DNA of 64,000 nt from an uncultured Chloroflexia bacterium. Lineage in GTDB: Bacteria > Chloroflexota > Limnocylindria > Limnocylindrales > CSP1-4. The position numbers were made by a program, and so were the translations under genes. The notes under the pieces were generated by a model, which ran no database searches, had not been told where the DNA came from, and saw only the letters and a list, made by a program, of their open reading frames with translations. Below are positions 8,841 to 42,938 of this stretch, piece by piece (positions within the stretch are counted from its first letter, which is position 1; each line of letters opens with the position of its first letter). The DNA is taken from the NCBI GenBank assembly GCA_963800795.1, contig CAWDCJ010000013.1, positions 6,916 to 70,915 of the forward strand. The letters are read 5' to 3'.

Positions 8841-9437
8841 ATGACGGAGCAGAAGGCACCGCCGGAGCGCCGCGTCGTGCTGCCGGTCGATCCCGCCCGC
8901 CGGACGGAGATCGACAAGCAACGGGTGCCGATGTCGGCCCGGCCGTATCGCCTGCTCGCGCTCGTGAAGCAGGACGCCGTGGTGCGCGTCCAGAAGGAAC
9001 CCGACGACACGGTCATGACCTGGCCGCACCTGCTCTCGATCGAGTTCCTGGCCGCCGTCTTCATGAGCATCTTCCTGCTGTTCATGGGCCTGTTCGTGAA
9101 CGCCCCGCTCGAGGAGCTCGCCAACGGGAACGTCACGCCTGAGGTGGCAAAGGCGCCCTGGTACTTCCTGGGGCTCCAGGAGCTCCTGGCCTACTTCCAC
9201 CCGACCGTCGCCGGCGCGCTCGTCCCGATCTTCGTGCTGGTCGGCGCGGCGCTGATCCCGTTCGTCGACCGCGAGAATGTCCGCGCCAACCGGCCCTCGG
9301 ACCGCAAGACCGCGGTCGTGCTCTTCTCGCTCTTCTGCGGTCTTGGGCTCGTCCTGACGTTCCTGGGTATCTTCTTCCGTGGCCCCGGCTACGCGTTCAC
9401 GCTGCCCTGGGTCAGCGGCTTCCACTTCAGTCTGTGA
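8841..9437 (+). CDS. petD: cytochrome b6f subunit IV-like (C-terminal part of cytochrome b)
   Basis: The ..VAKAPWYFLGLQELL.. motif (PEWY-type Qo site element) and three TM helices. Confidence 0.85.
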   Translation: MTEQKAPPERRVVLPVDPARRTEIDKQRVPMSARPYRLLALVKQDAVVRVQKEPDDTVMTWPHLLSIEFLAAVFMSIFLLFMGLFVNAPLEELANGNVTPEVAKAPWYFLGLQELLAYFHPTVAGALVPIFVLVGAALIPFVDRENVRANRPSDRKTAVVLFSLFCGLGLVLTFLGIFFRGPGYAFTLPWVSGFHFSL

Positions 9438-9444
9438 GCGTCCC

Positions 9445-10114
9445 ATGAGCAACTATCAGGTCGAACCCGCCAGCAAGCCCGGAGCCCTCACCAGCGAGGC
9501 GCTCAAGTCGATGCGCAACGAGGCGCCGAAGGGACTCTCGCGCCGGCAGCTCCTCCGAACGTCGCTCGGTGCGGGCGTGGGCCTCTGGCTCCTCGAAGTC
9601 TCCGCAGGCACCCTGGGGTTCCTGTGGCCCAACCTGTCGGGCGGATTCGGCGGCAAGGTCCCGCTGGGCTCGTTCACGGACGTCAAGAACGCGAACGCGC
9701 TGATCCCGTTCGGCGATGGGTACCCGGCCTACTACCAGGACGCGCGGTCGTTCATCGTGCTCGTGGACACCACTCGCCAGGAGTTCGTCCCGGGCGACGA
9801 TCCGACCGGCGACGGGACCGCCCTCAACGTGCGTGCCCTCTACCAGCGCTGCACGCACCTGGGCTGCAAGCCCAACTTCTGCGTCAAGAGCTACTGGTTC
9901 GAGTGCCCCTGCCACGGATCCCGCTACGATCGGTTGGGAACCAAGGTCAAGGAGCTCGGCCCGGCGCCGCGCTCGCTGGACCGGTTCGCGGTGAGCGTCG
10001 GCGGGCGACGGGAAGCTCACCCTCGACACGAGCAAGCTGACGCTCGGTCCGCTGCCCATAGCGCTGGGCCAGCCGGGTCTCATCCCATCGATGAGCCCGA
10101 CCGGCTGCATCTGA
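9445..10114 (+). CDS. petC: Rieske 2Fe-2S protein (1-nt frame break near 10003-10008)
   Basis: Twin-arginine signal SRRQLLRTSLGAG; CTHLGC and CPCHGS cluster boxes. A +1 slip after ..FAVSVGG reads the typical tail DGKLTLDTSKLTLGPLPIALGQPGLIPSMSPTGCI* (stop 10112-10114). Confidence 0.85.
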
Positions 10115-10142
10115 TCCGCATGACCACGACCGACGGCCTCCG

Positions 10143-11295
10143 ATGACCGAGCAGCCGGGCCAGCGCCCGGACGAGCGCCTGCCCGTCCCGCGTGAGCCGG
10201 ACCCGGTCGTCCCGCCGGAGCCGGGTGCGGTCGTCCCGCGCGAGCCCGCGGAGGTGGATCGGTTCACCGCGCACCCGAGCGCGCACACGGCCGGGCTGAC
10301 GCCCGAACGCGCCGCGAAGATCGTCAGCCAGAGCGCCAGCGCGCGCTGGGTCGCCTTCCTGGCCGTCACGATCGTCTCCCTGTTCGTGATCGTCTACTAC
10401 TTCTACGACCTCGGCGTCCCCGGCGTCGCGAACTCCAGCCGCTTTGGCCAACGAGGTCGCCGCCCAGCAGGTCACGGCCGTGACGCAGGGGTACGCGCTG
10501 TTCGAGGCGAACTGCGCGCGCTGCCACGGCGCCCAGGGCCAGGGCGGGATCGGGCCGACCCTCAACGACCAGGCCAAGCTGCTGACCCACCTCACGCCGG
10601 GCTACCTGCAGAGCGTCCTCACGGTGGGTGGCCGCTACGTGTGCGGTGACCCGAACTCGCTGATGCCGATCTGGTCGGACCAGGGCAACCCGCCCGGGCC
10701 GTTGAACTACCGGAACCTCCAGGAGCTGATCGCGTTCATCACGGCCCCGTCCACCCTGCAGTTCCAGGGCGTCGACCCGACCACCGGCCAGACCGTCACC
10801 ATGTCCGGCTGGCGCGACCCGAGCTACGTCCTCCCGGCGGGCGCCACCCCGGTTCCAGCGTGCTGGAAGGACGCGTTCACCTCGGCCTCTTCGCCCGCGG
10901 CCAGCGCGGCCCCCAGCGCCGGGGCCAGCGGGGCGCCGAGCGCGGCCCCAGCGAGCGCGGCGCCCTCCGGCAGCCCGGCCGGCTCGCCCGGCCGCATCCG
11001 GCGGCGCCGCGGAGACGGTCCTCCAGCTGGCGGCGGCGAACATCGCCTACGACCAGACCGACCTGACCGCCCCGGCGGGGGTCCCGTTCCAGATCGCGTT
11101 CACCAACAACGACGCGGGGATCCCCCACAACGTCTCGATCCACCAGGGCTCGCCGACCGGCACGGAGGTCTTCAAGGGCACGATCTTCACGGGCGTGGCC
11201 ACCCAGACCTACGACGTGCCGGCGCTCCCCGCCGGGACGTACAGCTTCGTCTGCTCGGTCCACCCGAACATGGCGGCACGCTCACGGTCAAGTAG
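10143..11295 (+). CDS. membrane-anchored monoheme cytochrome c fused to an amicyanin-like cupredoxin domain (frame breaks near 10441, ~10990, ~11272)
   Basis: TM helix WVAFLAVTIVSLFVIVYYF. Heme box CARCH with SLMPIW. Ala/Pro/Ser linker. Then FQIAFTNNDAGIPHNVSIH..YSFVCSVHPNMAGTLTVK* (His, Cys-x2-His-x2-Met copper ligands). Confidence 0.8.
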
Positions 11296-24173: not shown

Positions 24174-26158
24174 TCAGACGGCTTCTTCGAGCGCCTCGAC
24201 GAACTGGCTGTTGTACAGGTCGGCGTAGAAGCCGTTCCGCGCCAGCAGGTCCTTGTGGGTGCCCTGCTCGATGATCCGGCCGTGGTTCATGACGAGGATC
24301 GTGTCGGCGTCGCGGATGGTCGAGAGGCGATGGGCGATCACGAAGCTCGTGCGTCCCTTCATCAGCCTGGCCATCGCCCGCTGGATCAGGACCTCGGTCC
24401 GCGTGTCCACGGAGCTCGTCGCCTCGTCGAGGATCAGGATCCGCGGGTCGGCGAGGAACGCGCGGGCGATCGTGAGGAGCTGCTTCTCGCCGGCGGAGAC
24501 GCTCGTCGCGTCGTCGTCGAGGATGGTGTCGTAGCCGCCCGGCAGCGTCCGCACGAAGTGGTCGACGTGGGCGGCCTCGGCGGCCTGCTGGATCTCCTCC
24601 TCGGTCGCGTCCAGGCGCCCGTAGGCGATGTTCTCCCGGATCGTGCCGTTGAAGAGCCAGGCGTCCTGGAGGACCATCCCGAACGTCCGTCGAAGGTCGT
24701 CGCGGGTCATGTCCTTGACGTCGACCCCGTCCACGGTGATCCGCCCCGAGTCGATCTCGTAGAAGCGCATGAGCAGGTTCACGACCGTCGTCTTGCCGGC
24801 CCCGGTCGGGCCGACGATCGCGATCGTGTGGCCCTCGTCCGCCACCAGGTTCAGGTCCTCGATGAGCGGGACGTCGGGCAGGTAGCGGAACGAGACGTCG
24901 TCGAGCACGACCCGGCCCGCTGCCTCGTGCGACGGCCGGGCCGTGGCGGCGTCGGGGGCCTCCTCGGCCTCGTCGAGGAGCTCGAAGACGCGCTCGGCGG
25001 AGGCGACCGCCGACTGCAGCACGTTGATGATGCTGGCCGTCTGGACGATCGGCATGGTGAACTGGCGCGAGTACTGGATGAAGGCCTGGACGTCGCCGAG
25101 GGACATCGTCCCCGACGCGACCCGCACGCCGCCGATGACGCAGATCGCGACGTAGTTCAGGTTCGAGATGATGTTCATCGCCGGCTGGATGGTTCCGGAG
25201 ATGAACTGGGCCTTGTAGGACGCCTGGAAGAGGGCCTCGTTCTCCACCTCGAACTTGTCGATCGCCTCCTGCTGGCGTCCGAACGCCTTGACGATGGCAT
25301 GGCCGGTGTGCATCTCCTCGACGTGGCCGTTGAGCGTGCCCGTCCGCTCCCACTGCCTGGCGAACTGCTTCTGGGACCGGCTCGCGATCAGGATGGTCAC
25401 GACCAGCGCGGCGGGCACGACGAGCAGGGAGATCACCGCCAGGAGCGGGCTGATCGAGAACATCATGATCAGCACGCCGATGACCGTGAACACCGAGGTG
25501 ATGAGCTGGGTGAGGCTCTGCTGGAGCGTCTGGGCGATGTTGTCGATGTCGTTGGTGACGCGGCTCAGGATGTCGCCGCGCGACTCGCGGTCGAAGTAGG
25601 ACAGCGGCACGCGGCCCAGCTTCTCGTCGACGCGCCGGCGCAGGCGATAGACGGTGCGCTGGGTCACGCCCGCCATCAGGTAGGCCTGGCCCCAGGAGAA
25701 GCATCGAGCTGACGGCGTAGATGCCGGCCACCAGCAGCAGGACCCCGCCGAGGGCGCCGAAGTCCACGCCCTGCCGGGCGTCACGTTCATGCTGGCCAGC
25801 ATGTCGGCGAGGTTCGGCTGGCTCGCCGCGCGGAGGCCGGCAACGGCCTGCGCCTTGGTCACACCGGCAGGTAGCTGCTTGCCGATCACGCCGTCGAACA
25901 GGAGGTTGGTGGCGTTGCCCAGGATCTTGGGACCAAGGATGGCGAGCACCACGCTGACGATCGCGAGGAGCATCACCGCGATGACGACCCGGCGCTCCGG
26001 CCGGAGCTCGCCGATCAGGCGCCGGAAGGAGCCCCGGAAGTTCTTCGGCTTCGCCACCGGCATGGCGGCGAAGCCCATCGGCCCGCCACGGCCGGGGCCG
26101 CCGCCGCGCGCATCGGGGGCCGGCCGCCACCCGGACCACCCGTGTGCGGCCCGCTCAC
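24174..26158 (-). CDS. ABC exporter, fused permease/ATPase (frame breaks near 26090 and a compensated pair near 25700-25790)
   Basis: Six-TM domain, then GPTGAGKTT (Walker A), VSAGEKQLLTIARA (signature), ILILDEATSSVD (Walker B). GTG start 26158 overlaps the stop of the upstream exporter gene (GTGA). Confidence 0.85.
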
Positions 26159-27884
26159 GCGACCTCCTCCTCGGAGAGCTGCGAGTAGACGATCTCGCGG
26201 TAGGTCTCGCAGGTCTGCATGAGCTCGTCGTGGGTGCCGATGCCGACCACGCTCCCGGCGTCGAGGACCACGATCCGATCGGCGTGCAGGATCGTCCCGA
26301 CCCGCTGGGCGACGATGAGGACCGTGGCGTCGGCGAGGTTCTCGATCAGCGCCGCGCGGAGGCGGGCGTCCGTCCGGAAGTCGAGCGCGGAGAAGCTGTC
26401 GTCGAAGACGTAGACGTCGGGCTTCTTCACCAGGGCCCGGGCGATCGAGAGGCGCTGGCGCTGGCCGCCGGAGACGTTGGTGCCCCCCTGGGTGATCGGG
26501 GCCTCGAGTCCCCCTTCCATCTCCTGGACGAAGTCCCGGCCCTGGGCAATCTCCAGGGCGCGCCAGAGGTCCGCCTCCGAGGCGCTCTCGTCGCCGTAGC
26601 GAAGGTTGCTGGCGACCGTGCCGCTGAACAGGAATGCCTTCTGGGGGATCAGCCCGATCCGGCTCCAGAGGTCGGCGCGGTCCATCTCGCGCACGTCGAC
26701 CCCGTCGACGAGCACCGACCCGCCGCTCACGTCGTAGAAGCGCGGCAGGAGGTTCACGAGGGTGGACTTGCCGCTGCCGGTGCTGCCCACGATCGCCGTG
26801 GTCTCGCCCGGACCCGCCACGAACGAGATCCTGCGCAGGACCGGCTCCTCCGCGCCCGGGTAGCGGAACTCGACGTCCCGGAACTCGACGTGGCCGCTGC
26901 GCGGTGGCTGCACCGGGTCGGCCGGATCGTGGATGGATGGCTCCGTGTCCAGCACCTGCGCGGATCCGGTCGCTCGACACCGCGGCGCGCGGCACGATCA
27001 CGAACATGAAGGTCGCCATCATGATCGCGAACAGGATCTGGATGATGTACTGGAGGAACGCGGTCAGGTTGCCGATCGGCATCTGGCCGCTGTCGACCCG
27101 GATGCTGCCGAACCAGAGCACGGCCACGGTGGACAGGTTCATGATTGCCATGAGGGTCGGCATCATCAGGGCGAAGAGCCTGTTGACCCCGAGGGCGGTC
27201 TCGAACAGGTCCTCGTTCGCCTCGTCGAAGCGTCGCTCCTCGTAGTCCGTCCGCACGAATGCCCGGATCACGCGGACGCCGGACAGCGTCTCGCGCATCA
27301 CCTGGTTGATCCGGTCGATCTTGATCTGCATCGCCCGGAAGAGCGGCATGGCGCGGCGGACCAGGGTGCCGATGATCAGCGCCATCAGCGGCACGATCAC
27401 CAGCAGGATCGACGTGAGGGGGACGTCCTGGCGCAGGGCCATGATCACGCCGCCGACCAGCATGATCGGCGCCGACACCATCACGGTGAGACCGATGAGA
27501 ACGACCGTCTGGACCTGCTGGACGTCGTTCGTGTTGCGGGTGATCAGCGAGGCCGCTCCGAAGTGGTTCACCTCGACCTGCGAGAACGCCTGCACCTGCC
27601 CGAAGATGGCGGCGCGGAGATCGCGCCCGAAGGCCATCGACACCTTGGCGCGCCCAGTAGACGGCGATGATCGAGGCGACCCCCAGGGCGGCCGTCACGG
27701 CGAGCATCAGGCCGCCGATCCGCATGATGTAGTCCGTGTCCCCCTTCGCGACGCCGTTGTTGATGATGTCGGCGTACAGCTCCGGCAGGTACAGGTTGGC
27801 CAGCGACTGCACGAGCAGCAACGAGACCACGAGGACGAGCGCCCGCCGGTAGGGGCGCAGGAAGTTGACCAGGAGTCCCGTCAT
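26155..27884 (-). CDS. ABC exporter, fused permease/ATPase (frame breaks near 27650 and 26960)
   Basis: N-terminus MTGLLVNFLRPYRR.. (27884), TM core in track ORF 26015..27643, ATPase in 26155..26955 (GSTGSGKST, VSGGQRQRLSIARA, VYVFDDSFSALD). Confidence 0.85.
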
Positions 27885-28327
27885 CGGGCTGTCTCCGCCG
27901 CCCGATCCGCGATCAGGCAGACCAGCCGATGGAAGTCCGCCAGCTCGCCCGGCGTGAGCACGTCAAGGGCGCGCCGGGCCATCTCGAGGCGCTGTCCCGA
28001 CATCTCGTCGATGAGGCTGCGGCCGGCGTCCGCCAGCGCGCAGTCCACGATCCGCCGATCATCGGTGCGGTGCTGGCGAACGACAAGGCCATGCCGCTCC
28101 AGGCGCTCCACGATGCCCGATGCAGAGGCCACTGACACGCCGAGGATCTCGGCGAGCCGGCCCATCGGGAGCGGCGCCTCATGCGCGATGAGGAAGAGGG
28201 TCCGCACCTGCGCGAGCGTAAGGTCCTGCGCGAGCCAGCCGGGGAGCCCCGGCCCGCCTTGGAGACCCGGCCCGCCGGGGAGACCCGGCCCGCCGGGGAG
28301 GTGAAACGCGCGCGCCATGTCGGACAT
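27881..28327 (-). CDS. MarR family transcriptional regulator with internal PGGPGL repeat
   Basis: wHTH core LAQVRTLFLIAHEAPLPMGRLAEILGVSVASASGIVERLERHGLVVRQHRTDDRR. Start taken at MSDMARAF. Stop overlaps the exporter start (ATGA). Confidence 0.8.
   Translation of the reverse strand: MSDMARAFHLPGGPGLPGGPGLQGGPGLPGWLAQDLTLAQVRTLFLIAHEAPLPMGRLAEILGVSVASASGIVERLERHGLVVRQHRTDDRRIVDCALADAGRSLIDEMSGQRLEMARRALDVLTPGELADFHRLVCLIADRAAETAR
28241..28300. repeat. 18-nt tandem repeat, about 3.2 copies, in frame inside the marR-like gene
   Basis: GGAGCCCCGGCCCGCCTT / GGAGACCCGGCCCGCCGG / GGAGACCCGGCCCGCCGG / GGAG. Encodes LPGGPGLPGGPGLQGGPGLPG on the minus strand. Confidence 0.85.
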
Positions 28328-28502
28328 GACGGCGGCCGTGAGATCGGGGGAAACGGAGGCTGGTGGCATTCGCGGATAGTACGGCTGCACCTAAAGTATT
28401 GTCAACAGGCCAAACGATCCATGGCAATGTGAGTGATTCTTCACGGGTACGGCCGGGATCCCGGGTGCCGTGGTCGGCGCGGGACCGGTACGATGGCCGC
28501 CG

Positions 28503-30688: not shown

Positions 30689-31705
30689 TTGAGCATTGCG
30701 ATCGACCCCGTCGCTTCCGGGGGGTCGGCGGCCGCGCGCGCCGGTGAGCCACTCGCCGGGGAGACGCGGCTCATGCTTCGCGCAGCCCAGCTCTACTACC
30801 GGCTGAACCTCACCCAGGACCAGGTGGGGGAGCGGCTGGGCGTCAGCCGCTTCAAGGTCGGCCGGCTTCTCGACCGCGCCCTGCGCGAGTCGGCCGTCCG
30901 GATCGAGATCGTCCACCCGGCGGCGCGTTTCGTGGAGCTGGAGGATGCGCTCGCGAACCGGTTCGGGCTGCGCGGCGCCGTGGTCGTGGATGTGCCGGCC
31001 ACGGGTTCCTTGCCGGACGACGAGCTCCTCGCGCGCGAGCGCGTGGCCGAGGCCGGTGCCGCCCACCTCGCGTCGCTGCGGCCCGCTGGAGCCATCGGCG
31101 TCTCGTGGGGTCGCACCATGCTGGAGCTCGCCGCGCACCTGCGGCCCGGCTGGACCGCGGCCACGGAGATCGTCCAGCTCAACGGCGCCACGTCCCGTTC
31201 CACGTACCCGACGCGCGCCCACGAGATCGTGGAGCGGTTCGGGGCGACGAGCGGGGCCGCCCTGCGACTGATGCCTGCACCTGCGATCGTCGGCTCGCCA
31301 GAGCTGCGCGACGCGCTGGAGGATGATCCCTCGGTTGGCGAGACGCTGGCCGCCGCGCGCGAGGCTGGCACGGCGGTCTTCAGCATGGGCCTGATGGGTC
31401 CGGATAGCGTCCACGTGGCCTCGGGCTACCTCGGCGAGGCTGATCTGGCGGCGCTGGCCGATGCCGGCGCCGTGGGGGACGTCCTGGGGAGGTTCCTCTC
31501 CCGTGACGGTCGCATCGCCCTCCCATCGCTGGACCGGCGCACGATCGGGCTGCCGCTGGAGGATCTCCGGGAGAAGGCACTGACCGTCGGCCTGGCGGCC
31601 GGGCCCGGGCGGGGCCCGATCGCCCTGGCGGCCCTGCGGGCGGGGTGCATCACGGTGCTGGTGGCAGACGAGGCGACGGCCGCCTGGGTCCTTGAGCATG
31701 CCTGA
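30689..31705 (+). CDS. SorC/DeoR(Bsu)-family sugar-phosphate-binding transcriptional regulator
   Basis: N-terminal HTH LRAAQLYYRLNLTQDQVGERLGVSRFKVGRLL, then SorC sugar-binding domain (IGVSWGRT, VQLNG, GDVLGRF). Confidence 0.85.
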   Translation: MSIAIDPVASGGSAAARAGEPLAGETRLMLRAAQLYYRLNLTQDQVGERLGVSRFKVGRLLDRALRESAVRIEIVHPAARFVELEDALANRFGLRGAVVVDVPATGSLPDDELLARERVAEAGAAHLASLRPAGAIGVSWGRTMLELAAHLRPGWTAATEIVQLNGATSRSTYPTRAHEIVERFGATSGAALRLMPAPAIVGSPELRDALEDDPSVGETLAAAREAGTAVFSMGLMGPDSVHVASGYLGEADLAALADAGAVGDVLGRFLSRDGRIALPSLDRRTIGLPLEDLREKALTVGLAAGPGRGPIALAALRAGCITVLVADEATAAWVLEHA

Positions 31706-32360
31706 CCAGCGCCCGCGCGTGCAGGTGGATCCCGCGGCCCCGGCTGCCGGACTGTCGCCGGACGCGGTCCGGGAGGTGGTGCGCCGGATCGTTGACGCCA
31801 CCCTCGCCGGCGACGCGACTGCCACGCCCGTCGCCGCGGCCGCGACAAGCGTGGCGCAGGCATCCACCCCGGTCGCCCAGGAGGGCGTTGCGATCGCGAT
31901 CGGCGCCGACCACGGCGGGGCCGCGCTCAAGGACAGGATCGGCCAGGTGCTGGCGGAGTCCGGCTTCGCGGTCCAGGACTGTGGCACGCACGGGAGCACG
32001 CCCGTCGACTACCCTGACTTCGCCCATGCTGTCGCCCGCCTCGTGGCGGACGGGACCTGCCGCTGGGGCATCATCGTGGATGGCGCCGGGATCGGCTCGT
32101 GCATGGTCGCCAACAAGGTCCCGGGCGTCCGCGCCGCCCTCTGCCACGACCTTTCCTCCGCCCGCAACAGCCGCGAGCACAACCATGCCAACGTCCTGAC
32201 GCTGGGTGCCGGGTTCATCGGCGAAGCCCTCGCCATCGAGATCGTCCGGGCCTGGCTGGGGACTGCCTGGGGACCGGGCCGCCACGCAGCACGGGTCGAG
32301 AAGATCATGGACGTCGAGCGCCGTTACATGCGACCAGCCGGTGAGGGCCGAACAGGATGA
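31698..32360 (+). CDS. rpiB: ribose-5-phosphate isomerase B family enzyme with ~65-aa N-terminal extension
   Basis: Core [45 protein letters not shown]. The extension has the amphipathic helix [16 protein letters not shown] plus an Ala/Thr/Pro linker. Confidence 0.85.
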
Positions 32361-33254
32361 CCGAGACGAGCAGCCAACGCGACGACCTGGTGGAGGCGAT
32401 CACCCGGCAGGTGCTCGCGGCATTCGCCAACGGGGCGGGTGCAGGTGCCCAGGGCGCCGACGGTGACCCGTGCGCATCGTGCCGAGGGGCCTGCGCGGCC
32501 CAGTGCGCGACCAAGGTCCGCGACGTCGTGGCCGGCGGCGCGACGCGCGTCGATTATCACGGCCGCGCCGCCGACGTCCCCGCCGACCTCGCCCACTACA
32601 TCGACCACACGCTCCTGCGGCCCGACGCCTCCGCCGCGGACATCGACCGGCTCTGCGCGGAGGCGGCGGAGTACCGCTTCGCCGCGGTCTGCATCAACCC
32701 CACCTGGGTTCGCCGTGCGCGCGGACAACCTCCGCGGCACGGACGTCGTGGTGGCCTCGGTGATCGGCTTCCCGTTCGGGGCGGCGACGAGCGAGGTCAA
32801 GGCGCTCGAGGCGCGCCGGGCCATCCGCGACGGGGCCCGCGAGATCGACATGGTCATCAACATCGGGGCCCTCAAGAGCGGGATGCTCGACGCGGTCCGC
32901 GAGGACATCGCCCGGGTCTCGGATGCCTGCCACGAGGCTGGCGCGCTGAACAAGGTGATCATCGAGACGGCGCTCCTCAGCGACGAGGAGAAGGTGATCG
33001 CGTGTCAGCTCGCCAAGCAGGCGAAGGCGGACATGGTGAAGACGTCCACCGGGTACGCCTCGGGCGGGGCCACCGTGTTCGACGTCGCGCTGATGCGCGA
33101 GACGGTCGGGCCGAAGATGGGCGTCAAGGCGGCCGGCGGAATCCGCACCGCCCAGGACGTGCAGGACATGATCGCGGCCGGCGCGACCCGCATCGGGGCC
33201 TCGGCCGGCGTCAAGATCGTCACGGGAGAGAAGGGCGCGCATGGGCAATATTGA
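32357..33254 (+). CDS. deoC: deoxyribose-phosphate aldolase with ~65-aa N-terminal extension (frame break near 32706)
   Basis: [22 protein letters not shown] | [38 protein letters not shown] (Schiff-base Lys), VKAAGGIRT. Extension [15 protein letters not shown] plus [12 protein letters not shown]. Confidence 0.85.
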
Positions 33255-33871
33255 TCTTCGGGCGTACGTCTTCCTGGACAGCCTCCAGGCCCAGTACGCC
33301 GCGTTCCTCGGCACGGTCGCCCAGGGCTTCCTGCCGCTCGCCGGCGACGCCTCGCTCTCCATCGAGGTCTCGCCCGGGATCGAGATCAACCGGCTGACCG
33401 ACATCGCCCTCAAGACCACGTCCGTGAAGCCGGGCATGCAGATCATCGAGCGCTATTACGGCATGCTGGAGATCCACTCGCCGTCGCAGGCGGAGGTGCG
33501 GGCCGCGGGCGCCGCGATCCTCGCCGAGGTCGGGCGTGGCCGAGACGGACCGGATCAAGCCGCGCGTCCTGTCGAGCCAGATCATCCGCCGGATCGACGA
33601 CCACCAGGCCCAGCTCATCAACCGGACCCGGCATGGCCAGATGCTCATCCCTGGCCAGACGCTGTACGTGCTGGAGCTCGAGCCGGCCGCCTACGCCGCG
33701 CTGGCCGCCAACGAGGCGGAGAAGGCGGCCCACATCAACATCCTGGAGGTGCGGGCCTTCGGCTCCATGGGCCGCATCTACCTCGGAGGCGAGGAACGCG
33801 ACATCGACGTCGGCTGGCGCGCCGCGCTGGCCGCGATCGAGGGGCTCGAAGGACGCGAAGCAAAACCATAG
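33241..33871 (+). CDS. BMC-T shell protein, CcmP/CsoS1D-like tandem BMC domains (frame break near 33535)
   Basis: [56 protein letters not shown].. then ..[61 protein letters not shown]. Merges track ORFs 33241..33924 and 33536..33871. Confidence 0.75.
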
Positions 33872-33902
33872 TCGGACAGGGTCGTAGAAGGAGAACGGAT
33901 CG

Positions 33903-34211
33903 ATGGCAGAAGCGCTCGGGATGATCGAGGCGCGCGGGTTCGCGGCGGTGGTCGAAGCCGCCGACGCGATGGTCAAGGCGGCCAAGGTCGAGCTCGTCAG
34001 CTACGAGAAGACGGGCGGCGGGTACGTGACGGCCGTGGTGCGGGGCGACGTCGCAGCGGTCAAGGCGGCGGTCGAAGCCGGCGTCCGGAATGCCGCCAAG
34101 GTCGGTGAGGTCGTCGCCAGCCACGTGATCGCCCGGCCGCACGTCAACGTGGACCTCGTGCTGCCGCTCGGGCGGCTGGACGAGGCGAAGGCGGAGTCGG
34201 GCCAGGGCTAG
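33903..34211 (+). CDS. BMC-H hexameric shell protein (PduA/EutM-like)
   Basis: [58 protein letters not shown] is near-canonical. Confidence 0.95.
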
Positions 34212-34272
34212 GACGCGGGACGGGCGCGCCGGCTCCAAGCCGGCGCGCCGCTCCCCAGGCAGGTGGTGGAAG

Positions 34273-34560
34273 ATGCTTCTCGGACGCGTGACCGGGACCC
34301 TGGTGGCGAGCCGCAAGGAACCGCTCATGGAGGGCTGGACGCTCCTGGTGGTGCGCCAGCTGGATGCGGAGAACCACGAAGCCGGCGGGTATGTCGTGGC
34401 GGCCGACACGGTCGGGGCGGGCATCGGCGAGGTCGTCCTGTACGCCACCGGGAGCTCTGCCCGCCAGACCGAGACCACCCGGGACCGGCCCTGCGACGCC
34501 GTGATCATGGCGATCGTCGACACGTGGGAGATCGGCGGCCGGGAGGTCTACCGCAAGTAG
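34273..34560 (+). CDS. BMC-P pentameric vertex protein (EutN/CcmL family), copy 1
   Basis: [59 protein letters not shown]. Confidence 0.9.
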
Positions 34561-34572
34561 CGGGGACAGGCC

Positions 34573-36036
34573 ATGAATGAGCTCGACGGACGCGAGATCG
34601 CCGACATCATCGAGCGGGTACGCCGCCGTGTCGCGGCCGCCGGCGGCGAGCGGCCGGGCGCCGGCCTCCGGGCAGAGGCGGAGCTCTCGGCCGCCGCGGC
34701 GGCGGAGCTGGGCGACGGCATCCACGCCACGATCGACCAGGCAGTGGCTGCCGCCGCGGAGGCCTTCCGCGCCTTCGAGGCCCAGGGCCTCGCCGGCCGG
34801 AAGGTGATCATCGACGCCGTGCGCGGGTCGATGCTGGACCACGCCGAGCAGCTGGCCCGCATGGCCCACCAGGAGACGCACCTCGGGCGGGTCGAGGACA
34901 AGGTCGTCAAGAACCGCCTCGTGGCATCCAAGGCTCCCGGGCCGGAGGACCTCGAGGTCCAGGCCGTCACGGGCGATGCCGGGATGATGGTCACCGAGTT
35001 CGCCCCGTTCGGGGTGGTGGCGGCGATCACCCCGGTGACCAACCCGACTTCGACGATCATCAACAACACGATCAGCATCGTTTCGGCCGGCAACGCCGTG
35101 GTCTTCAACGCGCATCCCGGCGCGCGGCGCTGCTCCGCTGAGACGATCCGCCTCATCAACCGGGCGATCGTCGGGGCCGGCGGCCCGCCGAACCTCGTGA
35201 CGGCCGTGGCGACCCCCACGATCGAGACTGCCCGGGCGCTCATGCGCCACCCCGACGTGCGCGTGCTCCTCGTGACCGGGGGTCCCGCTGTCGTGCGAGA
35301 GGCGCTCCGAACGGACAAGCGGGCGATCACCGCCGGGCCCGGGAACCCGCCCGCGGTCGTCGACCAGACCGCCGACATCGAACGGGCCGCGCGGGACATC
35401 GTTCGCGGCGCCTCGTTCGACAACAACCTCGTCTGCATCGACGAGAAGGTCGTCCTCGTCGTGGACTCCGTCGCCGACCGGCTGCTCCGGGCCATGACCC
35501 AGCACGGGGCGTACCTGCTCAAGGAGCACGAGCTGCGCCGGCTGGAGCGCGTCATCTTCACGGAGCTCGGCCAACCCGGCAGGCCGGGCGTGATGAACCC
35601 GGCCTGGATCGGGCGCGACGCGGCGAAGATCCTGGCGGAGATCGGTGTCCAGGCGGAGCCGGCGCCGCGCCTGCTCGTCGCCGACGTCCCGCGCGAGCAC
35701 AGCCTGGCCTGGACCGAGCAGATGATGCCGGTCCTCCCGGTCGTCCGGGTGGGGACGGTGGAGCAGGCGATCGACCTGGCGGTGCGGATGGAGCACGGCT
35801 TCCGCCACACGGCCTCCATCCATTCGACGAACGTCGAGACGATCACCCGGATGGCCCGGGCGATGAACTGCAGCATCTTCGTGACGAACGGGCCAAACGT
35901 CGCCGGCCTCGGCGAGGGGGGCGAGGGATTCACCTCGTTCTCCATCGCCAGCCCGTCCGGCGACGGGCTGACCAGGCCCCGCACCTTCTCGCGCGAACGG
36001 CGGATCACCGTCGTCGGCGCGCTGCGGATCGTCTGA
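34573..36036 (+). CDS. CoA-acylating aldehyde dehydrogenase (EutE/PduP-like) with N-terminal encapsulation-peptide-like helix
   Basis: FGVVAAITPVTNPTST, AGNAVVFNAHP, TAGPGNPPAVVD, FDNNLVCIDEK (catalytic Cys), HTASIHS. N-terminal REIADIIERVRRRV plus a Gly/Ala linker. Confidence 0.9.
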   Translation: MNELDGREIADIIERVRRRVAAAGGERPGAGLRAEAELSAAAAAELGDGIHATIDQAVAAAAEAFRAFEAQGLAGRKVIIDAVRGSMLDHAEQLARMAHQETHLGRVEDKVVKNRLVASKAPGPEDLEVQAVTGDAGMMVTEFAPFGVVAAITPVTNPTSTIINNTISIVSAGNAVVFNAHPGARRCSAETIRLINRAIVGAGGPPNLVTAVATPTIETARALMRHPDVRVLLVTGGPAVVREALRTDKRAITAGPGNPPAVVDQTADIERAARDIVRGASFDNNLVCIDEKVVLVVDSVADRLLRAMTQHGAYLLKEHELRRLERVIFTELGQPGRPGVMNPAWIGRDAAKILAEIGVQAEPAPRLLVADVPREHSLAWTEQMMPVLPVVRVGTVEQAIDLAVRMEHGFRHTASIHSTNVETITRMARAMNCSIFVTNGPNVAGLGEGGEGFTSFSIASPSGDGLTRPRTFSRERRITVVGALRIV

Positions 36037-36635
36037 TGGGAGACGCCCGGCCCGCGATCGAGCCCGCCCTCGCTCTCCTCGAGCTGGGCTCGATCGCCGC
36101 GGGCATCGAGGCCGGCGACGCGATGGCCAAGCGGGCCCCGATCGACGTGATCCGGGCCGGCACGGTCCACCCCGGCAAGTACCTGATCCTCGTTGCCGGC
36201 GCGGTCGCCGACGTGGAGGAGGCCGCTCGAGGCGGGTCGCGAGGTCGGAGCCTCCTGGGTGCTCGACGCCGTCCTCATCCCCAACGTCCGCCAGGACCTC
36301 GTCGCCGCCATCCGCGGCGAGCGCCGCGCCGCCTCGGGTGAGGCGCTCGGCATCATCGAGACCGGCACCGTCGCGGCGATCCTCGAGGCCGCCGACGCAG
36401 GGCTCAAGGGCGCCCGGGTCAGCCTCCTCGAGATCCGGCTCGCCGACGACCTCGGCGGCAAGGGCTACCTCCTGTTCGACGGGACGGTGGCCGACGTGGA
36501 GGCGGCGCGTGGAGATCGGCAGTGACCGGATCGGCGGGTCGCCCGGCCTCGCGTGGCGGGTGATCCCCCTGCTGCACGCGAGATGGCCCGCAACCTGGCC
36601 GCCGACGCCCGCTTCGCCGCGCGGATCCGGGAGTA
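36036..36635 (+). CDS. BMC-T shell protein, PduT-like fused tandem BMC-H domains (2-3 frame breaks)
   Basis: Domain 1 ALALLELGSIAAGIEAGDAMAKRAPIDVIRAGTVHPGKYLILVAGAVADVEEA. Domain 2 ALGIIETGTVAAILEAADAGLKGARVSLLEIRLADDLGGKGYLLFDGTVADVEAA. Own reading ends ..ARFAARIRE* at 36633-36635. Confidence 0.75.
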
Positions 36636-36642
36636 GGCCGCC

Positions 36643-36928
36643 GATGCAGCTGGCGCGCGTGATCGGGACGGTGGTCGCCACCGTGAAGTCGCCGGGCCTC
36701 GAGGGCGTGAAGCTGCTCGTGATCCAGCCGCTGGACCGGGCCTCACAGCCGATCGGGGGCCAGCTCGTGGCCGCGGACGCCATCCACATGGCGGGTCCGG
36801 GCGAGCTGGTCTACTTCGTCGCGGCACGCGAGGCCGCCCAGGCCATGCCCGACCCGTTCGTCCCGGTCGACCACGCCATCGTGGGGATCGTGGACGCGGT
36901 CGCGGCGCTCCGCGGGGCAACGCCGTGA
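36643..36928 (+). CDS. BMC-P pentameric vertex protein, copy 2
   Basis: MQLARVIGTVVATVKSPGLEGVKLLVIQPLD..LVAADAIHMAGPGELVYFVAAREA..HAIVGIVD. ATG 36643 inside track ORF 36338..36928. Confidence 0.85.
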
Positions 36929-37443
36929 AGATCGGCCGCGTCGTGGGGACCGTCGTGTCGACGATCAACGCCCCGGCCTTCGACGGCCGGACGCTCCTTC
37001 TCTGCGATCTCCTGGACCCGGCCGGGACGCCGGCCGGTGGGTACGTCATCGCGGTGGACTCGGTCGGGGCCGGGGCCGGCGAGACGGTCCTGATCCTTGA
37101 CGAGGGCAACTCCGCGCGCCAGGTCCTGGCAGCAGCCGGGGCTCCGATCCGGACGGTCGTGGTCGGCATCGTTGACGCGGTTGTCGAGTCCGCGTCCCCA
37201 GCCGCCTCCCGGGAGGCACAGGCGATCCTCAGCGGCGCGCGCAGCCCCCGGGACGGTGCGCCCGACACAGCGTGCGACCGGGCGACCGGCGCGCCGCGGC
37301 CCGCCCGGCCCGCCCGGCGCCTCGCCGTTGAACGCGACCGGCGAGGTCGGCGCCTCCCGCGTTCCGGGCACCATGGAAGGCGCCCCGACCGCGCTCCGGC
37401 AGCTCCTCGAGGATGCCGCCGCAGGTCGCTTCCCGCCCGCTGA
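36925..37443 (+). CDS. BMC-P pentameric vertex protein, copy 3 (3' end uncertain)
   Basis: GTG start in a GTGA overlap. MKIGRVVGTVVSTINAPAFDGRTLLLCDLLD..YVIAVDSVGAGAGETVLILDEGNSAR..VVVGIVD. Only the first ~90 codons look like the domain. The Arg/Pro-rich tail to 37443 overlaps the next gene and may be a frame artefact. Confidence 0.7.
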   Translation: MKIGRVVGTVVSTINAPAFDGRTLLLCDLLDPAGTPAGGYVIAVDSVGAGAGETVLILDEGNSARQVLAAAGAPIRTVVVGIVDAVVESASPAASREAQAILSGARSPRDGAPDTACDRATGAPRPARPARRLAVERDRRGRRLPRSGHHGRRPDRAPAAPRGCRRRSLPAR

Positions 37444-38417: not shown

Positions 38418-39749
38418 CTACCCGGTGATCCGCTCCAGCACGACGGGCATGGGAGCCGGCGGCTCGTCGCCGATCATGACCGCGGCACGAACCTCGCGCG
38501 CCGCGGCCTCGGCCTGGGCCTCGGAGCGCGCGTGCACGAGGCAGATGGGCCGGTCCGGGCCGACCGCGGCGCCGATCGGCGCGAACCGCGTGAGGCCCAC
38601 CGCGTGGTCGATCTGCTGGTCGGCGCGAACGCGCCCGCCGCCCAAGCCGACGATTGCGAGGCCGATGGCCCGCGTGTCCTCGGCGACGATGAACCCGCTC
38701 CGCTCCGGGCGGACGGGGAGCGTGACCTCGGGCAACGGCAGGTATACGTCCGGGCGCTCGAGCAGATCCGCGGGCCCGCCCAGCGCCGCGACCATCCGGG
38801 CGAAGCGATCGGCCGCCTCCCCGGACGCCAGGGCCAGCTCGCAGGCAGCCCGCGCCGCCGCCGCGTCTGCGAACAGGCCACCGGTCACGAGCAGCTCGGC
38901 GCACAGCGCCATCGTGACCTCGTGCTGGCGGGGTTCGCGAGCGCCTGGGCCGCCTTCGCCGGCCAGGTAGGCGATCGCCTCGCGCGTCTCGACGGCGTTT
39001 CCCGCCGTGTGCCCACGCACCTGGTTCATGTCCGTCAGGAGCGCGGTCGTCCGGCACCCGGCACCGTTGGCAACCGACACGATGCTCTCGGCCAGGGCGC
39101 GCCCGTCCTCGGCCGTGGTCATAAATGCGCCGCTGCCGAATGTCACGTCCTGTACCAGGCCGACAAGGCCAGCGGCCAGCTTCTTCGACAGGATGGACGA
39201 GGTGATGAGCGGGATGCTCTCGACGGTGGCGGTGACGTCCCGGATGGCGTACAGGCGCCGGTCGGCCGGCGCCAGGTCGGCAGTCGCGCCGATGATCGCG
39301 CAGCCGACCTCGCGGACGACCCGGCGGAAGGTGGCATTGTCGGGAACGCTCGTGTAGCCCGCGATCGCGTCCAGCTTGTCCAGGGTGCCGCCGGAGTGGC
39401 CCAGCCCCCGCCCCGAGATCATCGGGACCGCGCCGCCGCAGGCCGCCACGATCGGCGCCAGCATCAGCGATACGGTGTCGCCGACGCCGCCGGTGCTGTG
39501 CTTGTCGAGCGCCGGGCCGGGCAGGTCCGCGCGGGACCAGTCGAGGACCGTGCCGGAATCGCGCATGCCGTGGGTAAGGGCGATCACTTCCCGTCGCGTC
39601 ATCCCCCGGACCAGCACGGCCATCGCGAAGGCCGCCACCTGCCCCTCGCTGATCGAGCAGTCCGTGATGCCGGCCACGAAGAACGCGATCTCCTGGTCCG
39701 TGAGGGCGCGGCCATCGCGTTTCGCTCGGATGACTTCCTGCGGAAGCAT
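38418..39749 (-). CDS. deoA: thymidine/pyrimidine-nucleoside phosphorylase
   Basis: [52 protein letters not shown]. Confidence 0.95.
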
Positions 39750-39752
39750 CCG

Positions 39753-40622
39753 CTAGTCCCCCGACGCTGGCTGGGCCGCGAACGAGCCGGCGAAGGCCCG
39801 GACCAGGCGCGTGAGGTCCGCCGCGGCGATCGCGGCACCCCGAAGCGTCTGGGCATGGTCGACCGGCACCGCGCTCATGCCCACCGCGAGATTGGTGATC
39901 GCGCTGATCGCCGCGACCCGGAGCCCGGCGTGGCGCGCGACGATCACTTCGGGCACGGTGGACATGCCGACCGCGTCCGCACCGAGGGCGCGGTAGGCGC
40001 GGATCTCCGCGGGCGTCTCGAAGATCGGGCCGAGGAGCGCGCAGTAGACGCCCTCGTGGAGGTGGATGCCGAGCCCTGCCGCAAGCCCCAGCAGCCGGCT
40101 GCGGAGTGCCGGGTCGTAGGCGTCCTCGAGGCCAGTGAACCGCTCGCCCCAGGCGTCGTCGTTCGGTCCGACGAGAGGGTTCGTTCCCATGAGGTTGAGG
40201 TGATCGGTGATCAGCATCAGGCTGCCCGGCCCTGCCTCTGCACGCAGTGAGCCGGCTGCGTTCGTCAGCAGGAGCGCCTCGACGCCGAGCGCGGCGAACG
40301 TCCGGATCGGGAGCCGGATCACCGCAGGAGGGAGGCCCTCGTAGAGATGGAAGCGGCCCTGCATGCAGGCGACCGTGGTGCCGTCGAGCTCGCCGATCAG
40401 GAACCGGCCGGCGTGGCCCGCCACGGTCGATGTCGGGAAGCCCGGGATCTCGGCGTACGGGACGGCGACCGCCGCATCGAGGATATCGGCGAGCCCGCCG
40501 AGGCCTGATCCCAGCACGATGCCCAGGCGTGGAGTGCGTCCTCCCGCCCGTTCCCGGAGCAGCGCCGCGATTGCGACGGGATCGCCGGGGAGGTGGGCGT
40601 CGCCGGCGCCGCGGGGGCTCAT
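39753..40622 (-). CDS. punA: purine nucleoside phosphorylase (trimeric PNP family)
   Basis: GIVLGSGLGG, FPTSTVAGHAG, QGRFHLYEG, LTNAAG, GPIFETPAE, GADAVGMSTVPE. ATGA overlap with the cdd stop. Real part of track ORF 39753..40877. Confidence 0.9.
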   Translation of the reverse strand: MSPRGAGDAHLPGDPVAIAALLRERAGGRTPRLGIVLGSGLGGLADILDAAVAVPYAEIPGFPTSTVAGHAGRFLIGELDGTTVACMQGRFHLYEGLPPAVIRLPIRTFAALGVEALLLTNAAGSLRAEAGPGSLMLITDHLNLMGTNPLVGPNDDAWGERFTGLEDAYDPALRSRLLGLAAGLGIHLHEGVYCALLGPIFETPAEIRAYRALGADAVGMSTVPEVIVARHAGLRVAAISAITNLAVGMSAVPVDHAQTLRGAAIAAADLTRLVRAFAGSFAAQPASGD

Positions 40623-41044
40623 CGCGGGGTCTCCTTGAGCAGGAACTCGGGTCCGAAGCTGAGCGGGAGCAGCTCGCCGAGCGTCACGCTGCGGATGACC
40701 CCACCCGGCCCGGCAAGGTGGACAAGCCCGTCGAGCGGCATGAACTCGCGGAGCCGCTGTCGGCATGCGCCGCACGGGGTGGGGAGCCCGGACGCAGGAT
40801 CGGCGACGACGAGGGCCTCGACGATTCGACGACCGCCCGCGGCGATCAGCATGCCGATCGCGGACGCCTCCGCGCACTGGCCCTGGGGGTAGGCGGCGTT
40901 CTCCACGTTCGGCGCAGCGTGGACCCGGCCGAGCTCGTCGCGCAGCGCCGCGCCCACGGCGTAGCCCGAGTACGGCGAGTAGGTCCGCTCCCGCGCCGCG
41001 AGCGCGGCGGCGAGGAGGTCATCCGGCGAGCCGGCGGTTGGCAT
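40619..41044 (-). CDS. cdd: cytidine deaminase
   Basis: YSPYSGYAVGAAL, zinc motifs CAEASAI and PCGACRQ. Confidence 0.9.
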   Translation of the reverse strand: MPTAGSPDDLLAAALAARERTYSPYSGYAVGAALRDELGRVHAAPNVENAAYPQGQCAEASAIGMLIAAGGRRIVEALVVADPASGLPTPCGACRQRLREFMPLDGLVHLAGPGGVIRSVTLGELLPLSFGPEFLLKETPR

Positions 41045-41401: not shown

Positions 41402-42938
41402 ATGACACAGGTTGGTGAGCCACGCGTGGAAGCCCGTGCGGCTCTGGAGCGGGTGAACCACTGGATCGGTGGAGCGCGCGTGGCCGGGACCTCGGGGCGC
41501 TTCGGGCCCGTCTACGACCCCGCCATCGGAGCCGTCGCCCGGACGGTGGACTTCGCGTCGGTCGAGGAGGTCGACGCAGCGGTCGCGTCAGCGCGCCGCG
41601 GCCTTCCCGGCGTGGCGTGCCACCTCGCTCTCGAAGCGCACGGAGATCCTGTTCCGGGTCCGCAACCTCGTCGAGGCGCACCGGACGGAGCTCGCGGCGC
41701 ACCTGACGGCGGAGCACGGCAAGGTCACCTCGGATGCGCTCGGTGAGATCGCGCGCGGCCTGGAGAACCTGGAGTTCGCCTGCGGCATCCCCACGCTCAT
41801 CAAGGGCGGCTTCTCCGAGCAGGCCTCCACCGGCGTGGACGTCTACCAGATCCGCCAGCCGCTCGGCGTGGTCGCGGGGATCACGCCGTTCAACTTCCCG
41901 GCCATGGTCCCGATGTGGATGTTCGGCAACGCGATCGCCTGCGGCAACACGTTCATCCTGAAACCGTCGGAGAAGGACCCATCCGCAGCCATGCTCATGG
42001 CCGAGCTGCTCGCGGAGGCGGGCGTGCCGGCGGGCGTCTTCAACGTGGTCCAGGGCGACAGGGTGGCGGTGGACCGGCTCCTGGAGCACCCCGCCATCGC
42101 CGCGGTCAGCTTCGTCGGCAGCACGCCGATCGCGCGGCACATCTACGAGACCGCCACGAAGAACGGCAAGCGCGTCCAGGCGCTGGGCGGGGCGAAGAAC
42201 CACATGCTGGTCCTGCCGGACGCGGACATCGACATGGCCGCCGACGCCGCGGTCTCGGCCGGGTACGGTTCCGCGGGCGAGCGCTGCATGGCGATCGCGA
42301 CCATCGTCGCGGTGGGCGACGTCGCGGACCCGCTCGTCGAGGCGATCCGCGCCCGGCTGCCCAGGGTCACCGTGGGCCCCGGCACCGATCCCGCGTCGCA
42401 GATGGGCCCGCTCGTCACGCGCCAGCACATGGAGAAGGTCGCTTCCTACCTCGAGTCGGCTCCGGCGCAGGGCGCCACCCTCGTCGCGGATGGACGCGAG
42501 CACCCGCTCCATCGCGCCGGCGATGGCTTCTTCCTGGGCGCCAGCCTGATCGACCACGTCGACACGGGCATGGACTGCTACCGCGACGAGATCTTCGGCC
42601 CGGTCCTCACGGTGATCCGGGTTCGGACCTACGAGGAAGGGGTCCGGCTCATCAACGCGAACCCGTACGGCAACGGGGCCGCGATCTTCACCCGCGACGG
42701 AGGCGCCGCGCGGCAGTTCCAGTTCGAGGTCAACGCCGGGATGGTCGGCATCAACGTGCCGATCCCGGTCCCGGTCGCCTATTACAGCTTCGGCGGCTGG
42801 AAGGCCTCCCTGTTCGGCGATCTCCACATGTACGGGCCGGAGGGGATCCAGTTCTACACCCGGGCGAAGGTGGTCACCTCGCGCTGGCCGGACCCGGGTA
42901 CCTCCTCGGTCGACCTGGGCTTTCCCCGCACGCGGTAG
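41402..42938 (+). CDS. mmsA: CoA-acylating methylmalonate-semialdehyde dehydrogenase (frame break near 41590)
   Basis: HWIGG.., GITPFNFPAMVPMWMF, FILKPSEKDP, FVGSTP, GGAKNH, GERCMA, RDEIFGPVL, YSFGGWKASLFGD. N-terminus MTQVGEP (ATG 41402) lies in a different frame from track ORF 41469..42938. Confidence 0.9.

Follow-up and report, generated by a model that had tools for sequence, protein, structure and literature searches.

The stretch analysed here, 64,000 nucleotides of a Chloroflexota genome (72% G+C) and hereafter called the window, contains a single plus-strand gene cluster at 30.7–37.4 kb, in which three enzyme genes are interleaved with shell-protein genes of a bacterial microcompartment (BMC). 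The enzymes are an RpiB-like protein, the aldolase DeoC (DERA) and a CoA-acylating aldehyde dehydrogenase (AldDH), while the shell genes encode BMC-Tdp, BMC-H and BMC-T proteins and three BMC-P proteins. Judging from its predicted genes, the cluster is a sugar-phosphate-utilising (SPU) microcompartment locus, with DERA as the signature enzyme, an acylating AldDH, shell genes, an RpiB carrying Asp in place of the catalytic Cys, and a BMC-P triplet. Each of the three enzymes begins with an extension, and sequence conservation, structure models and analogy with characterised systems make it highly probable that RpiB, DeoC and AldDH each carry an N-terminal encapsulation peptide.

N-terminal extensions of the three enzymes

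The RpiB-like gene occupies positions 31698–32360 on the plus strand (Pfam LacAB_rpiB, E=1.1e-50, and PDB alignment), and its product, database entry P0121, is 220 aa long when counted from the ATG. It is followed by the DeoC gene (32357–33254, plus strand; Pfam DeoC; PDB DERAs, E=6e-77), which encodes 298 aa once a single inserted base near 32719 is removed; intact 298-aa homologues exist at 95% identity. The AldDH gene, at 34573–36036 on the plus strand, encodes a 487-aa CoA-acylating enzyme of the PduP/EutE type (PDB 5jfl, E=4e-129), which has no C-terminal extension, the 5jfl alignment reaching the last residue.

In all three proteins, homology to enzymes of known structure sets in late. 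For RpiB, it begins at residue 64–66, where residue 3 of 3he8 matches query residue 66, and the Pfam LacAB_rpiB family begins at residue 68 of the 222-aa form that starts at TTG. The free-living DERAs 8qps, 5dbu and 6d33 align with DeoC from residue 77–78, and homology in AldDH begins at residue 47–49, with 4c3s, a truncated PduP structure, aligning from residue 49. The extensions are thus ~63 residues in RpiB, ~76 in DeoC and ~46 in AldDH. The first-pass annotation, a reading of the window made from its sequence, had estimated 45–65 extra residues, which is right for RpiB and AldDH and too low for DeoC. It had also stated that free-living homologues lack the extensions, and the solved RpiB, DERA and AldDH structures do align only past them. 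An alignment with non-BMC DeoC, which it had proposed as a check, yielded two DeoCs (in L057 and L068) that have neither the extension nor a neighbouring RpiB. When the three extensions were scanned alone, no Pfam family matched any of them (E up to 10).

The peptides named in the first-pass annotation were correctly placed. The RpiB peptide corresponds to residues 21–36 of the open reading frame (ORF) from ATG 31698 (nt 31758–31805), the DeoC peptide to residues 9–23 of the ORF from 32357, and the AldDH peptide, REIADIIERVRRRV, to residues 7–20 of the ORF from 34573, ending exactly at 34632. Its overall range of 31752–34632 accordingly starts two codons upstream of the RpiB helix and ends with the last residue of the quoted AldDH peptide.

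In RpiB, the putative encapsulation-peptide helix covers residues 21–38 (31758–31811, plus strand), as indicated by AlphaFold2 (AF2), hydrophobic moment and conservation. AF2, run on the window's own RpiB together with 29 homologues, drew a helix over these residues with a predicted local distance difference test (pLDDT) score of ~73 over residues 21–30, disorder at 1–20 and 39–61 (pLDDT 31–33), and a Rossmann-like domain from residue 65. Amphipathicity was measured as the Eisenberg moment of 14-mers at 100 degrees, with shuffles of the extension as the control. The RpiB moment of 0.746 ranks first among the 207 14-mers of the protein and is matched by 0.7% of shuffles. Within 30 close homologues, V28 and R29 are the only invariant residues of the extension, and the helix pattern (D/E)-x-V-R-x-(I/V)-V-x-R-(I/V)-V is kept across phyla. 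The Ala/Thr/Pro-rich linker that follows (residues 39–63; 31812–31886, plus strand) is predicted to be flexible and differs in length by tens of residues among homologues.

A further element was seen in other RpiBs. Many of those from Acidobacteriota and Anaerolineae (L049, L065, L069, L071, L038, L058, L022, L024 and others) have an extra module of ~45 aa ahead of the catalytic domain, in some cases behind an encapsulation-peptide helix, with the pattern ITxxDV...GAxVTPLAxD...I. Pfam gave only sub-threshold PF15953 (PDU_like) matches for this module, and the window's RpiB is without it.

For DeoC, AF2 was run on an intact 95%-identical homologue (P0001) rather than on the ORF of the window, and it predicted a helix at residues 5–24 (pLDDT 56–68) and a coil at 25–37. 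Together with conservation, this defines a candidate N-terminal helix at 32369–32428 (plus strand), in which L11, I15, T16 and V19 are invariant among close homologues and L11, V12, I15, V19, L20 and F23 form a hydrophobic stripe (i, i+1, i+4, i+8, i+9). An LVExITREVL-type motif is recognisable at the DeoC N-terminus in 64 of the 80 loci described below. The Gly/Ala linker, residues 25–37 (32429–32467, plus strand), is modelled as coil with pLDDT <50 and varies in length by up to ~21 aa among close homologues. Beyond the extension, the columns of the catalytic Asp and the two Lys, which the searchable text of PMC11585597 gives for a Chloroflexi SPU DERA, are invariant (D165, K229 and K258 in the numbering of alignment A1). 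In one locus, L021 (~9200–10900), RpiB and DeoC are apparently fused in one open frame of 581 codons, with the DeoC helix and the four-Cys module described below kept internally; this fits the RPI-DERA fusions reported for SPU3.

The AldDH helix, predicted from sequence and conservation, spans residues 7–23 (REIADIIERVRRRVAAA; 34591–34641, plus strand). Its moment of 0.863 ranks first among 474 14-mers and is matched by 0.65% of shuffles, and no Gly or Pro occurs between G6 and G24. An ExEIQxIIERVRxRV-type motif is kept in the ~25 loci that have a PduP-like AldDH. The Gly/Ala-rich linker, residues 24–46 (34642–34710, plus strand), is rich in Ala, Gly and Glu, and both its sequence and its length vary across orthologues.

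The comparison across genomes came from a pattern scan with one genome per species, which gave 80 loci. The closest of these are metagenome-assembled genomes of Chloroflexota, and close RpiB homologues are named 'Candidatus Limnocylindrales' in the database; the others come from Acidimicrobiia (Actinomycetota), Acidobacteriota, Anaerolineae and further phyla. From Chloroflexota to Acidobacteriota, orthologous loci keep all three helices, whereas the linkers differ in their residues and, owing to indels, in how long they are. Such a pairing of a conserved helix with a freely drifting linker is the classic hallmark of an encapsulation peptide.

The first-pass annotation had read the extensions as encapsulation peptides, and our results agree with this reading: the extensions lie at the terminus and are missing from non-BMC homologues, each combines a conserved helix with a variable linker, and the genes stand among shell genes. 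Its description of the linkers as flexible and poorly conserved also held up, with indels that reach tens of residues and with pLDDT <50 in the AF2 models of RpiB and DeoC, and the secondary-structure prediction that it had suggested returned the RpiB and DeoC helices at residues 21–38 and 5–24. Its claim that all three helices are amphipathic stood for RpiB and AldDH, whose top 14-mers are matched by <1% of shuffles. In DeoC, the helix is hydrophobic and highly conserved, but by this test its amphipathicity does not exceed that of shuffled controls.

Several points weigh against assigning encapsulation peptides to all three enzymes. The DeoC moment, 0.519, ranks only 15th of 285 and is reached by 38% of shuffles, and the AF2 confidence for the DeoC helix is moderate only. 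The RpiB helix is not at the very N-terminus, being preceded by a variable leader of ~20 aa. A Cys-rich module in the DeoC extension is unaccounted for by a simple encapsulation-peptide model. DeoC and two shell genes are frameshifted in the window, and the locus would be non-functional if the frameshifts were real. Finally, the searchable SPU literature contains no encapsulation experiment for this locus or for any SPU encapsulation peptide.

Gene content of the locus and the role of RpiB

Upstream of the RpiB-like gene lies a gene for a SorC-type sugar-binding transcriptional regulator (30689–31705, plus strand; Pfam Sugar-bind, E=3e-50), which has an equivalent position in L081, a syntenic locus with 94% identity to the window. 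Between the DeoC and AldDH genes, on the plus strand, are genes for a CcmP-like BMC-Tdp, a double-permuted shell protein of 209 aa (33241–33871; PDB CcmP 4ht5, E=4.5e-86), a BMC-H shell hexamer protein (33903–34211; Pfam BMC, E=1.5e-29) and the first of the three BMC-P pentamer proteins (34273–34560; Pfam EutN_CcmL, E=5.8e-29). Downstream of AldDH, on the same strand, follow a tandem-domain BMC-T shell protein (36036–36640, end approximate; Pfam BMC on both halves; an intact 199-aa gene in L081) and the second and third BMC-P genes (36644–36928 and 36925–37443; Pfam EutN_CcmL, E=9.5e-26 and 2.2e-23), so that EutN_CcmL genes start at 34273, 36644 and 36925. The third BMC-P ORF has 172 aa in the window versus 134 aa in L081 and 92–117 aa in L002 and L008; its C-terminal tail was probably created by indels at 37200–37296. 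Genes for PduS, PTAC and alcohol dehydrogenase are absent from the locus.

Next to the cluster, on the minus strand, lie genes for a pyrimidine-nucleoside phosphorylase, a purine-nucleoside phosphorylase and a cytidine deaminase (38418–41044; Pfam), in an arrangement that matches L081. A phosphopentomutase gene was not identified, although the whole window was not searched for one. Beyond the nucleoside genes, at 41469–42938, there is a second, non-BMC aldehyde dehydrogenase that resembles methylmalonate-semialdehyde dehydrogenase, and synteny in L081 is kept here as well. On the other side of the cluster, a MarR-family regulator gene (27881–28390, minus strand) carries an 18-nt insertion relative to L081 at ~28247 (28181–28304). 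It sits in a repeated GGPGLP-coding N-terminal stretch and represents an in-frame difference in tandem-repeat length.

The active site of the RpiB-like protein departs from that of characterised isomerases. Where Clostridium thermocellum RpiB has ICGTG, the window's protein has VDGAG (within IVDGAG, residues 126–131, window 32070–32090), so that the catalytic Cys is replaced by Asp128 and the helper Thr by Ala130. Both D128 and A130 are invariant in the RpiB alignment A5, and 72 of the 80 loci have an RpiB match upstream of DeoC, with Asp at the position of the catalytic Cys in nearly all of them. The protein keeps His and Arg residues that belong to the active site in characterised RpiBs, and another substrate is possible. 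According to the searchable text of PMC11585597, all SPU RPIs (ribose-5-phosphate isomerase homologues) carry Asp for the catalytic Cys, ribose-5-phosphate isomerase activity was low or absent in the one tested, and Dwyer et al. proposed a packaging or scaffold role for SPU RPI.

By these sequence features, the RpiB of the window is probably not an isomerase, and a role as packaging partner of DERA appears more likely than isomerase activity. This bears on the suggestion of the first-pass annotation that, because both DeoC and RpiB are targeted, sugar-phosphate chemistry takes place within the shell. For DeoC, this agrees with the accepted SPU model, in which DERA cleaves deoxyribose-5-phosphate in the compartment. 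For RpiB, the suggestion does not hold in the same way: with the catalytic Cys and Thr replaced by Asp128 and Ala130, and with little or no activity in the tested SPU RPI, an encapsulation tag on RpiB does not demonstrate isomerase chemistry inside the shell.

Alternative readings of the extensions and of the locus

The alternative that survives best concerns DeoC. Between the linker and the barrel, residues 38–76 (32468–32584, plus strand) form a Cys-rich module with the arrangement C39-x2-C42-x3-C46-x3-C50, followed by a segment with VVxAGAxR. The first-pass annotation had described a helix plus a Gly/Ala linker in DeoC; both are present, but the part after the linker is this conserved module and not the barrel. 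The four Cys are invariant in alignments A1 (22 close homologues) and A4 (30 close homologues). Of the 80 diverse loci, 52 have four or more Cys, with Cx2Cx3Cx3C (16 loci) and Cx3Cx4Cx3C (15 loci) as the main spacings, and 75 have the VVxAGAxR segment. Searches with the module gave no Pfam match and no PDB match, and AF2 drew a low-confidence helix over residues 38–59 (pLDDT 36–40). A whole-library phmmer search with DeoC residues 1–80 returned 45 matches, nearly all of them N-terminal fragments of DERAs, with a few long multi-stretch matches that resemble low-complexity noise. Because the matches are nearly all DERA N-termini, the module is not common to other enzymes at the sensitivity of phmmer.

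The extension of DeoC might accordingly be mainly a small structured domain, metal-binding or redox-responsive, of which the helix is a part rather than a generic encapsulation peptide; such a domain could bind Zn or Fe-S, cross-link the core by disulfides or dock RpiB. The invariant Cys in close homologues, their two recurrent spacings, the widespread VVxAGAxR segment and the confinement of the module to DERAs would fit this, as would the unremarkable moment of the DeoC helix and its LVExITREVL motif, which is much better conserved than typical encapsulation peptides. However, lineages lacking one to four of the Cys, namely Acidimicrobiia and some Anaerolineae, still keep the helix and AGAxR, the AF2 confidence is low, known families and structures offer no match, and, as in encapsulation peptides, a variable, indel-rich linker lies between the helix and the Cys module. 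A structured domain is also compatible with a targeting role. We therefore hold this reading to be a possible but rather unlikely one, and an encapsulation peptide remains our preferred account of the DeoC N-terminus.

As to the module itself, the conserved Cys tentatively suggest that the four Cys and VVxAGAxR could be a small element that binds a metal (Zn or Fe-S) or makes disulfides, with metal binding as our leading guess for its function. A model in which the four Cys share one helical face (i, i+3, i+7, i+11 in Cx2Cx3Cx3C) was rejected, as the equally common Cx3Cx4Cx3C breaks this geometry. The searchable text of the SPU papers, including PMC11585597, does not discuss a Cys4 motif in the DERA extension. 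If the element does exist, the SPU signature enzyme would have a step that depends on redox state or on metal, either in core assembly or in its activity, and the recurrent loss of Cys in some lineages would mark a switch of lifestyle or assembly mode. The module is a loose end worth testing.

A second alternative is that the locus is a decaying pseudogene cluster, with real frameshifts in DeoC, BMC-Tdp and BMC-T, and that the extensions are relics. Indeed, five 1-nt indels that all relatives lack interrupt three of the ten genes of the locus. The DeoC frame is broken by a 1-nt insertion at ~32719, within GCGCGCG (32715–32721, plus strand; DNA alignments against L001, L002, L008 and L081), BMC-Tdp by a 1-nt insertion at ~33532, and BMC-T by three 1-nt indels at 36223, 36507 and 36577. 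However, comparison of the window with L081 revealed ~20 isolated 1-nt indels across 18 kb, several at GCGC or GCGCGC, sequence contexts in which systematic long-read errors are typical, and these indels also hit unrelated neighbouring genes, such as ABC transporters (further sites at 25702–28466, 37200–37296 and 41593). There are no in-frame stops and no large deletions; the corrected DeoC frame past the insertion shows 18 synonymous versus 5 non-synonymous codon differences from L001, and L081 has the entire locus and the neighbouring genes intact. In view of the codon differences, the intact L081 and the spread of the indels, we judge decay to be very unlikely. The pattern of the indels makes assembly or base-calling errors the most likely explanation, and the GCGC contexts point to long-read base calls that go wrong systematically, perhaps at a methylated motif. 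In practice, DeoC and two shell proteins will be overlooked or cut short when this locus is annotated automatically.

The starts of all three enzymes are well supported by their upstream context. The rpiB ATG overlaps the stop codon of the regulator (ATGCCTGA), as does the deoC ATG that of rpiB (ATGA), and both overlaps suggest translational coupling, while DeoC and AldDH each have only 4 in-frame codons between the upstream stop and the ATG. Independent gene calls in relatives give identical lengths of 220, 298 and 487 aa. High-GC DNA does yield long spurious ORFs, many overlapping ORFs are found in the window, and the RpiB start is ambiguous from its sequence alone (ATG 31698, TTG 31692 or a downstream GTG), yet the idea that the extensions are ORF-calling artefacts of a 72% G+C genome, with the frame merely open upstream of the true starts, is scarcely credible beside these starts and gene calls, and was rejected in view of the conservation of the helix protein sequences across phyla of very different G+C content.

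Proposed assembly and comparison with known systems

For the function of the extensions, we infer targeting, bundling and a pathway from the literature, and set them beside the anatomy, conservation, helix and disorder predictions and gene context obtained here. By analogy with characterised encapsulation peptides, which form trimeric bundles and condensates and drive cargo assembly (PMC12339742), the helices would bundle together, held by contacts between their apolar faces and by i/i+4 salt bridges, and would attach to the inner surface of the shell. A DERA-RPI-AldDH core would nucleate in this way and then be enclosed by the BMC-H, BMC-T, BMC-Tdp and BMC-P proteins, while each linker would tether its helix to the enzyme and be free to diverge. 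The adjacent phosphorylases may release deoxyribose-1-phosphate from nucleosides, with conversion to the 5-phosphate as the next step. In the lumen, DERA would cleave deoxyribose-5-phosphate and AldDH would trap the acetaldehyde as acetyl-CoA. The adjoining nucleoside phosphorylase and cytidine deaminase genes fit the proposed recycling of deoxyribose from DNA by SPU compartments, and the exact boundaries of helix, linker and domain given above are usable for construct design.

N-terminal encapsulation peptides are known from the Pdu and Eut systems on PduP, PduD, EutC and EutE (Fan 2010, Kinney 2012 and Aussignargues 2015, as cited in the searchable text of PMC11585597). The window's extensions share with them a helix of ~18 residues, amphipathic in RpiB and AldDH, a disordered linker and then the enzyme. 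The PduP peptide, which we take to be MNTSELETLIRTILSEQL, shares the hydrophobic register h-x-x-h-h-x-x-h-h. On this assumed sequence, V24, V27, V28, I31, V32 and L36 of RpiB correspond to L6, L9, I10, I13, L14 and L18 of PduP, the invariant R29 of RpiB falls at the position of PduP R11, and E13 and R17 of DeoC fall at the positions of the E7-R11 salt-bridge pair. The numbering of the assumed peptide is consistent with E7, I10, R11 and E16 of PMC12339742. Unlike the Pdu and Eut cases, the cargo enzymes are others, a 20-aa leader precedes the RpiB helix, and DeoC has an additional Cys-rich module.

The RpiB-like protein also recalls defunct scaffold proteins that bear encapsulation peptides, namely CcmM of beta-carboxysomes and the inactive second AldDH of glycyl radical enzyme microcompartment (GRM) loci (searchable text of PMC11585597). 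Like these, it keeps its fold and an apparent encapsulation peptide, is without the catalytic Cys and Thr, and is conserved beside DERA. It may differ from these in keeping some activity. A DERA-RPI complex is formed by the published SPU6 pair (same source), which, together with the features of RpiB, suggests a structural or packaging role.

The closest comparison is with the SPU loci themselves, as defined by Axen 2014 (PMC4207490) and Sutter 2021 (PMC8217296). In the searchable text of Dwyer, Sutter and Kerfeld (Commun Biol 2024, PMC11585597), N-terminal encapsulation peptides are described on SPU DERA, RPI and AldDH. There, the N-terminus of every SPU DERA is reported to be extended by ~70 aa, which include an amphipathic helix as well as two strands predicted weakly. 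SPU RPIs reportedly start with a typical encapsulation peptide on a long unstructured linker, and SPU AldDHs bear an encapsulation peptide that sits at the N-terminus in all subtypes but SPU6. Full-length DERA was insoluble and became soluble after deletion of the extension; DERA was active and formed a complex with RPI. The window shares with the published loci RPI (PF02502), DERA (PF01791) and an acylating AldDH, the adjacency of RPI and DERA, the BMC-P triplet and BMC-Tdp. It also shares the helix-led DERA extension of ~70 aa, the RPI helix with its long linker and the N-terminal AldDH peptide, as well as the replacement of Cys by Asp in RPI and the retained catalytic Asp and two Lys of DERA.

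Given its CcmP-like BMC-Tdp and the predicted N-terminal encapsulation peptide of AldDH, the locus looks more like SPU2 or SPU3 than like SPU6, the subtype studied by experiment; the absence of PduS is atypical for SPU2 and SPU3. In essentials, the locus does not differ from the published SPU loci, to which it adds one more case, found in a high-GC Chloroflexota genome (Limnocylindrales-like). The feature is already published, and the window is a further instance of it, a correct rediscovery in one more genome. It adds little new biology, and it extends the published SPU rule of encapsulation peptides on DERA, RPI and AldDH to a high-GC Chloroflexota lineage.

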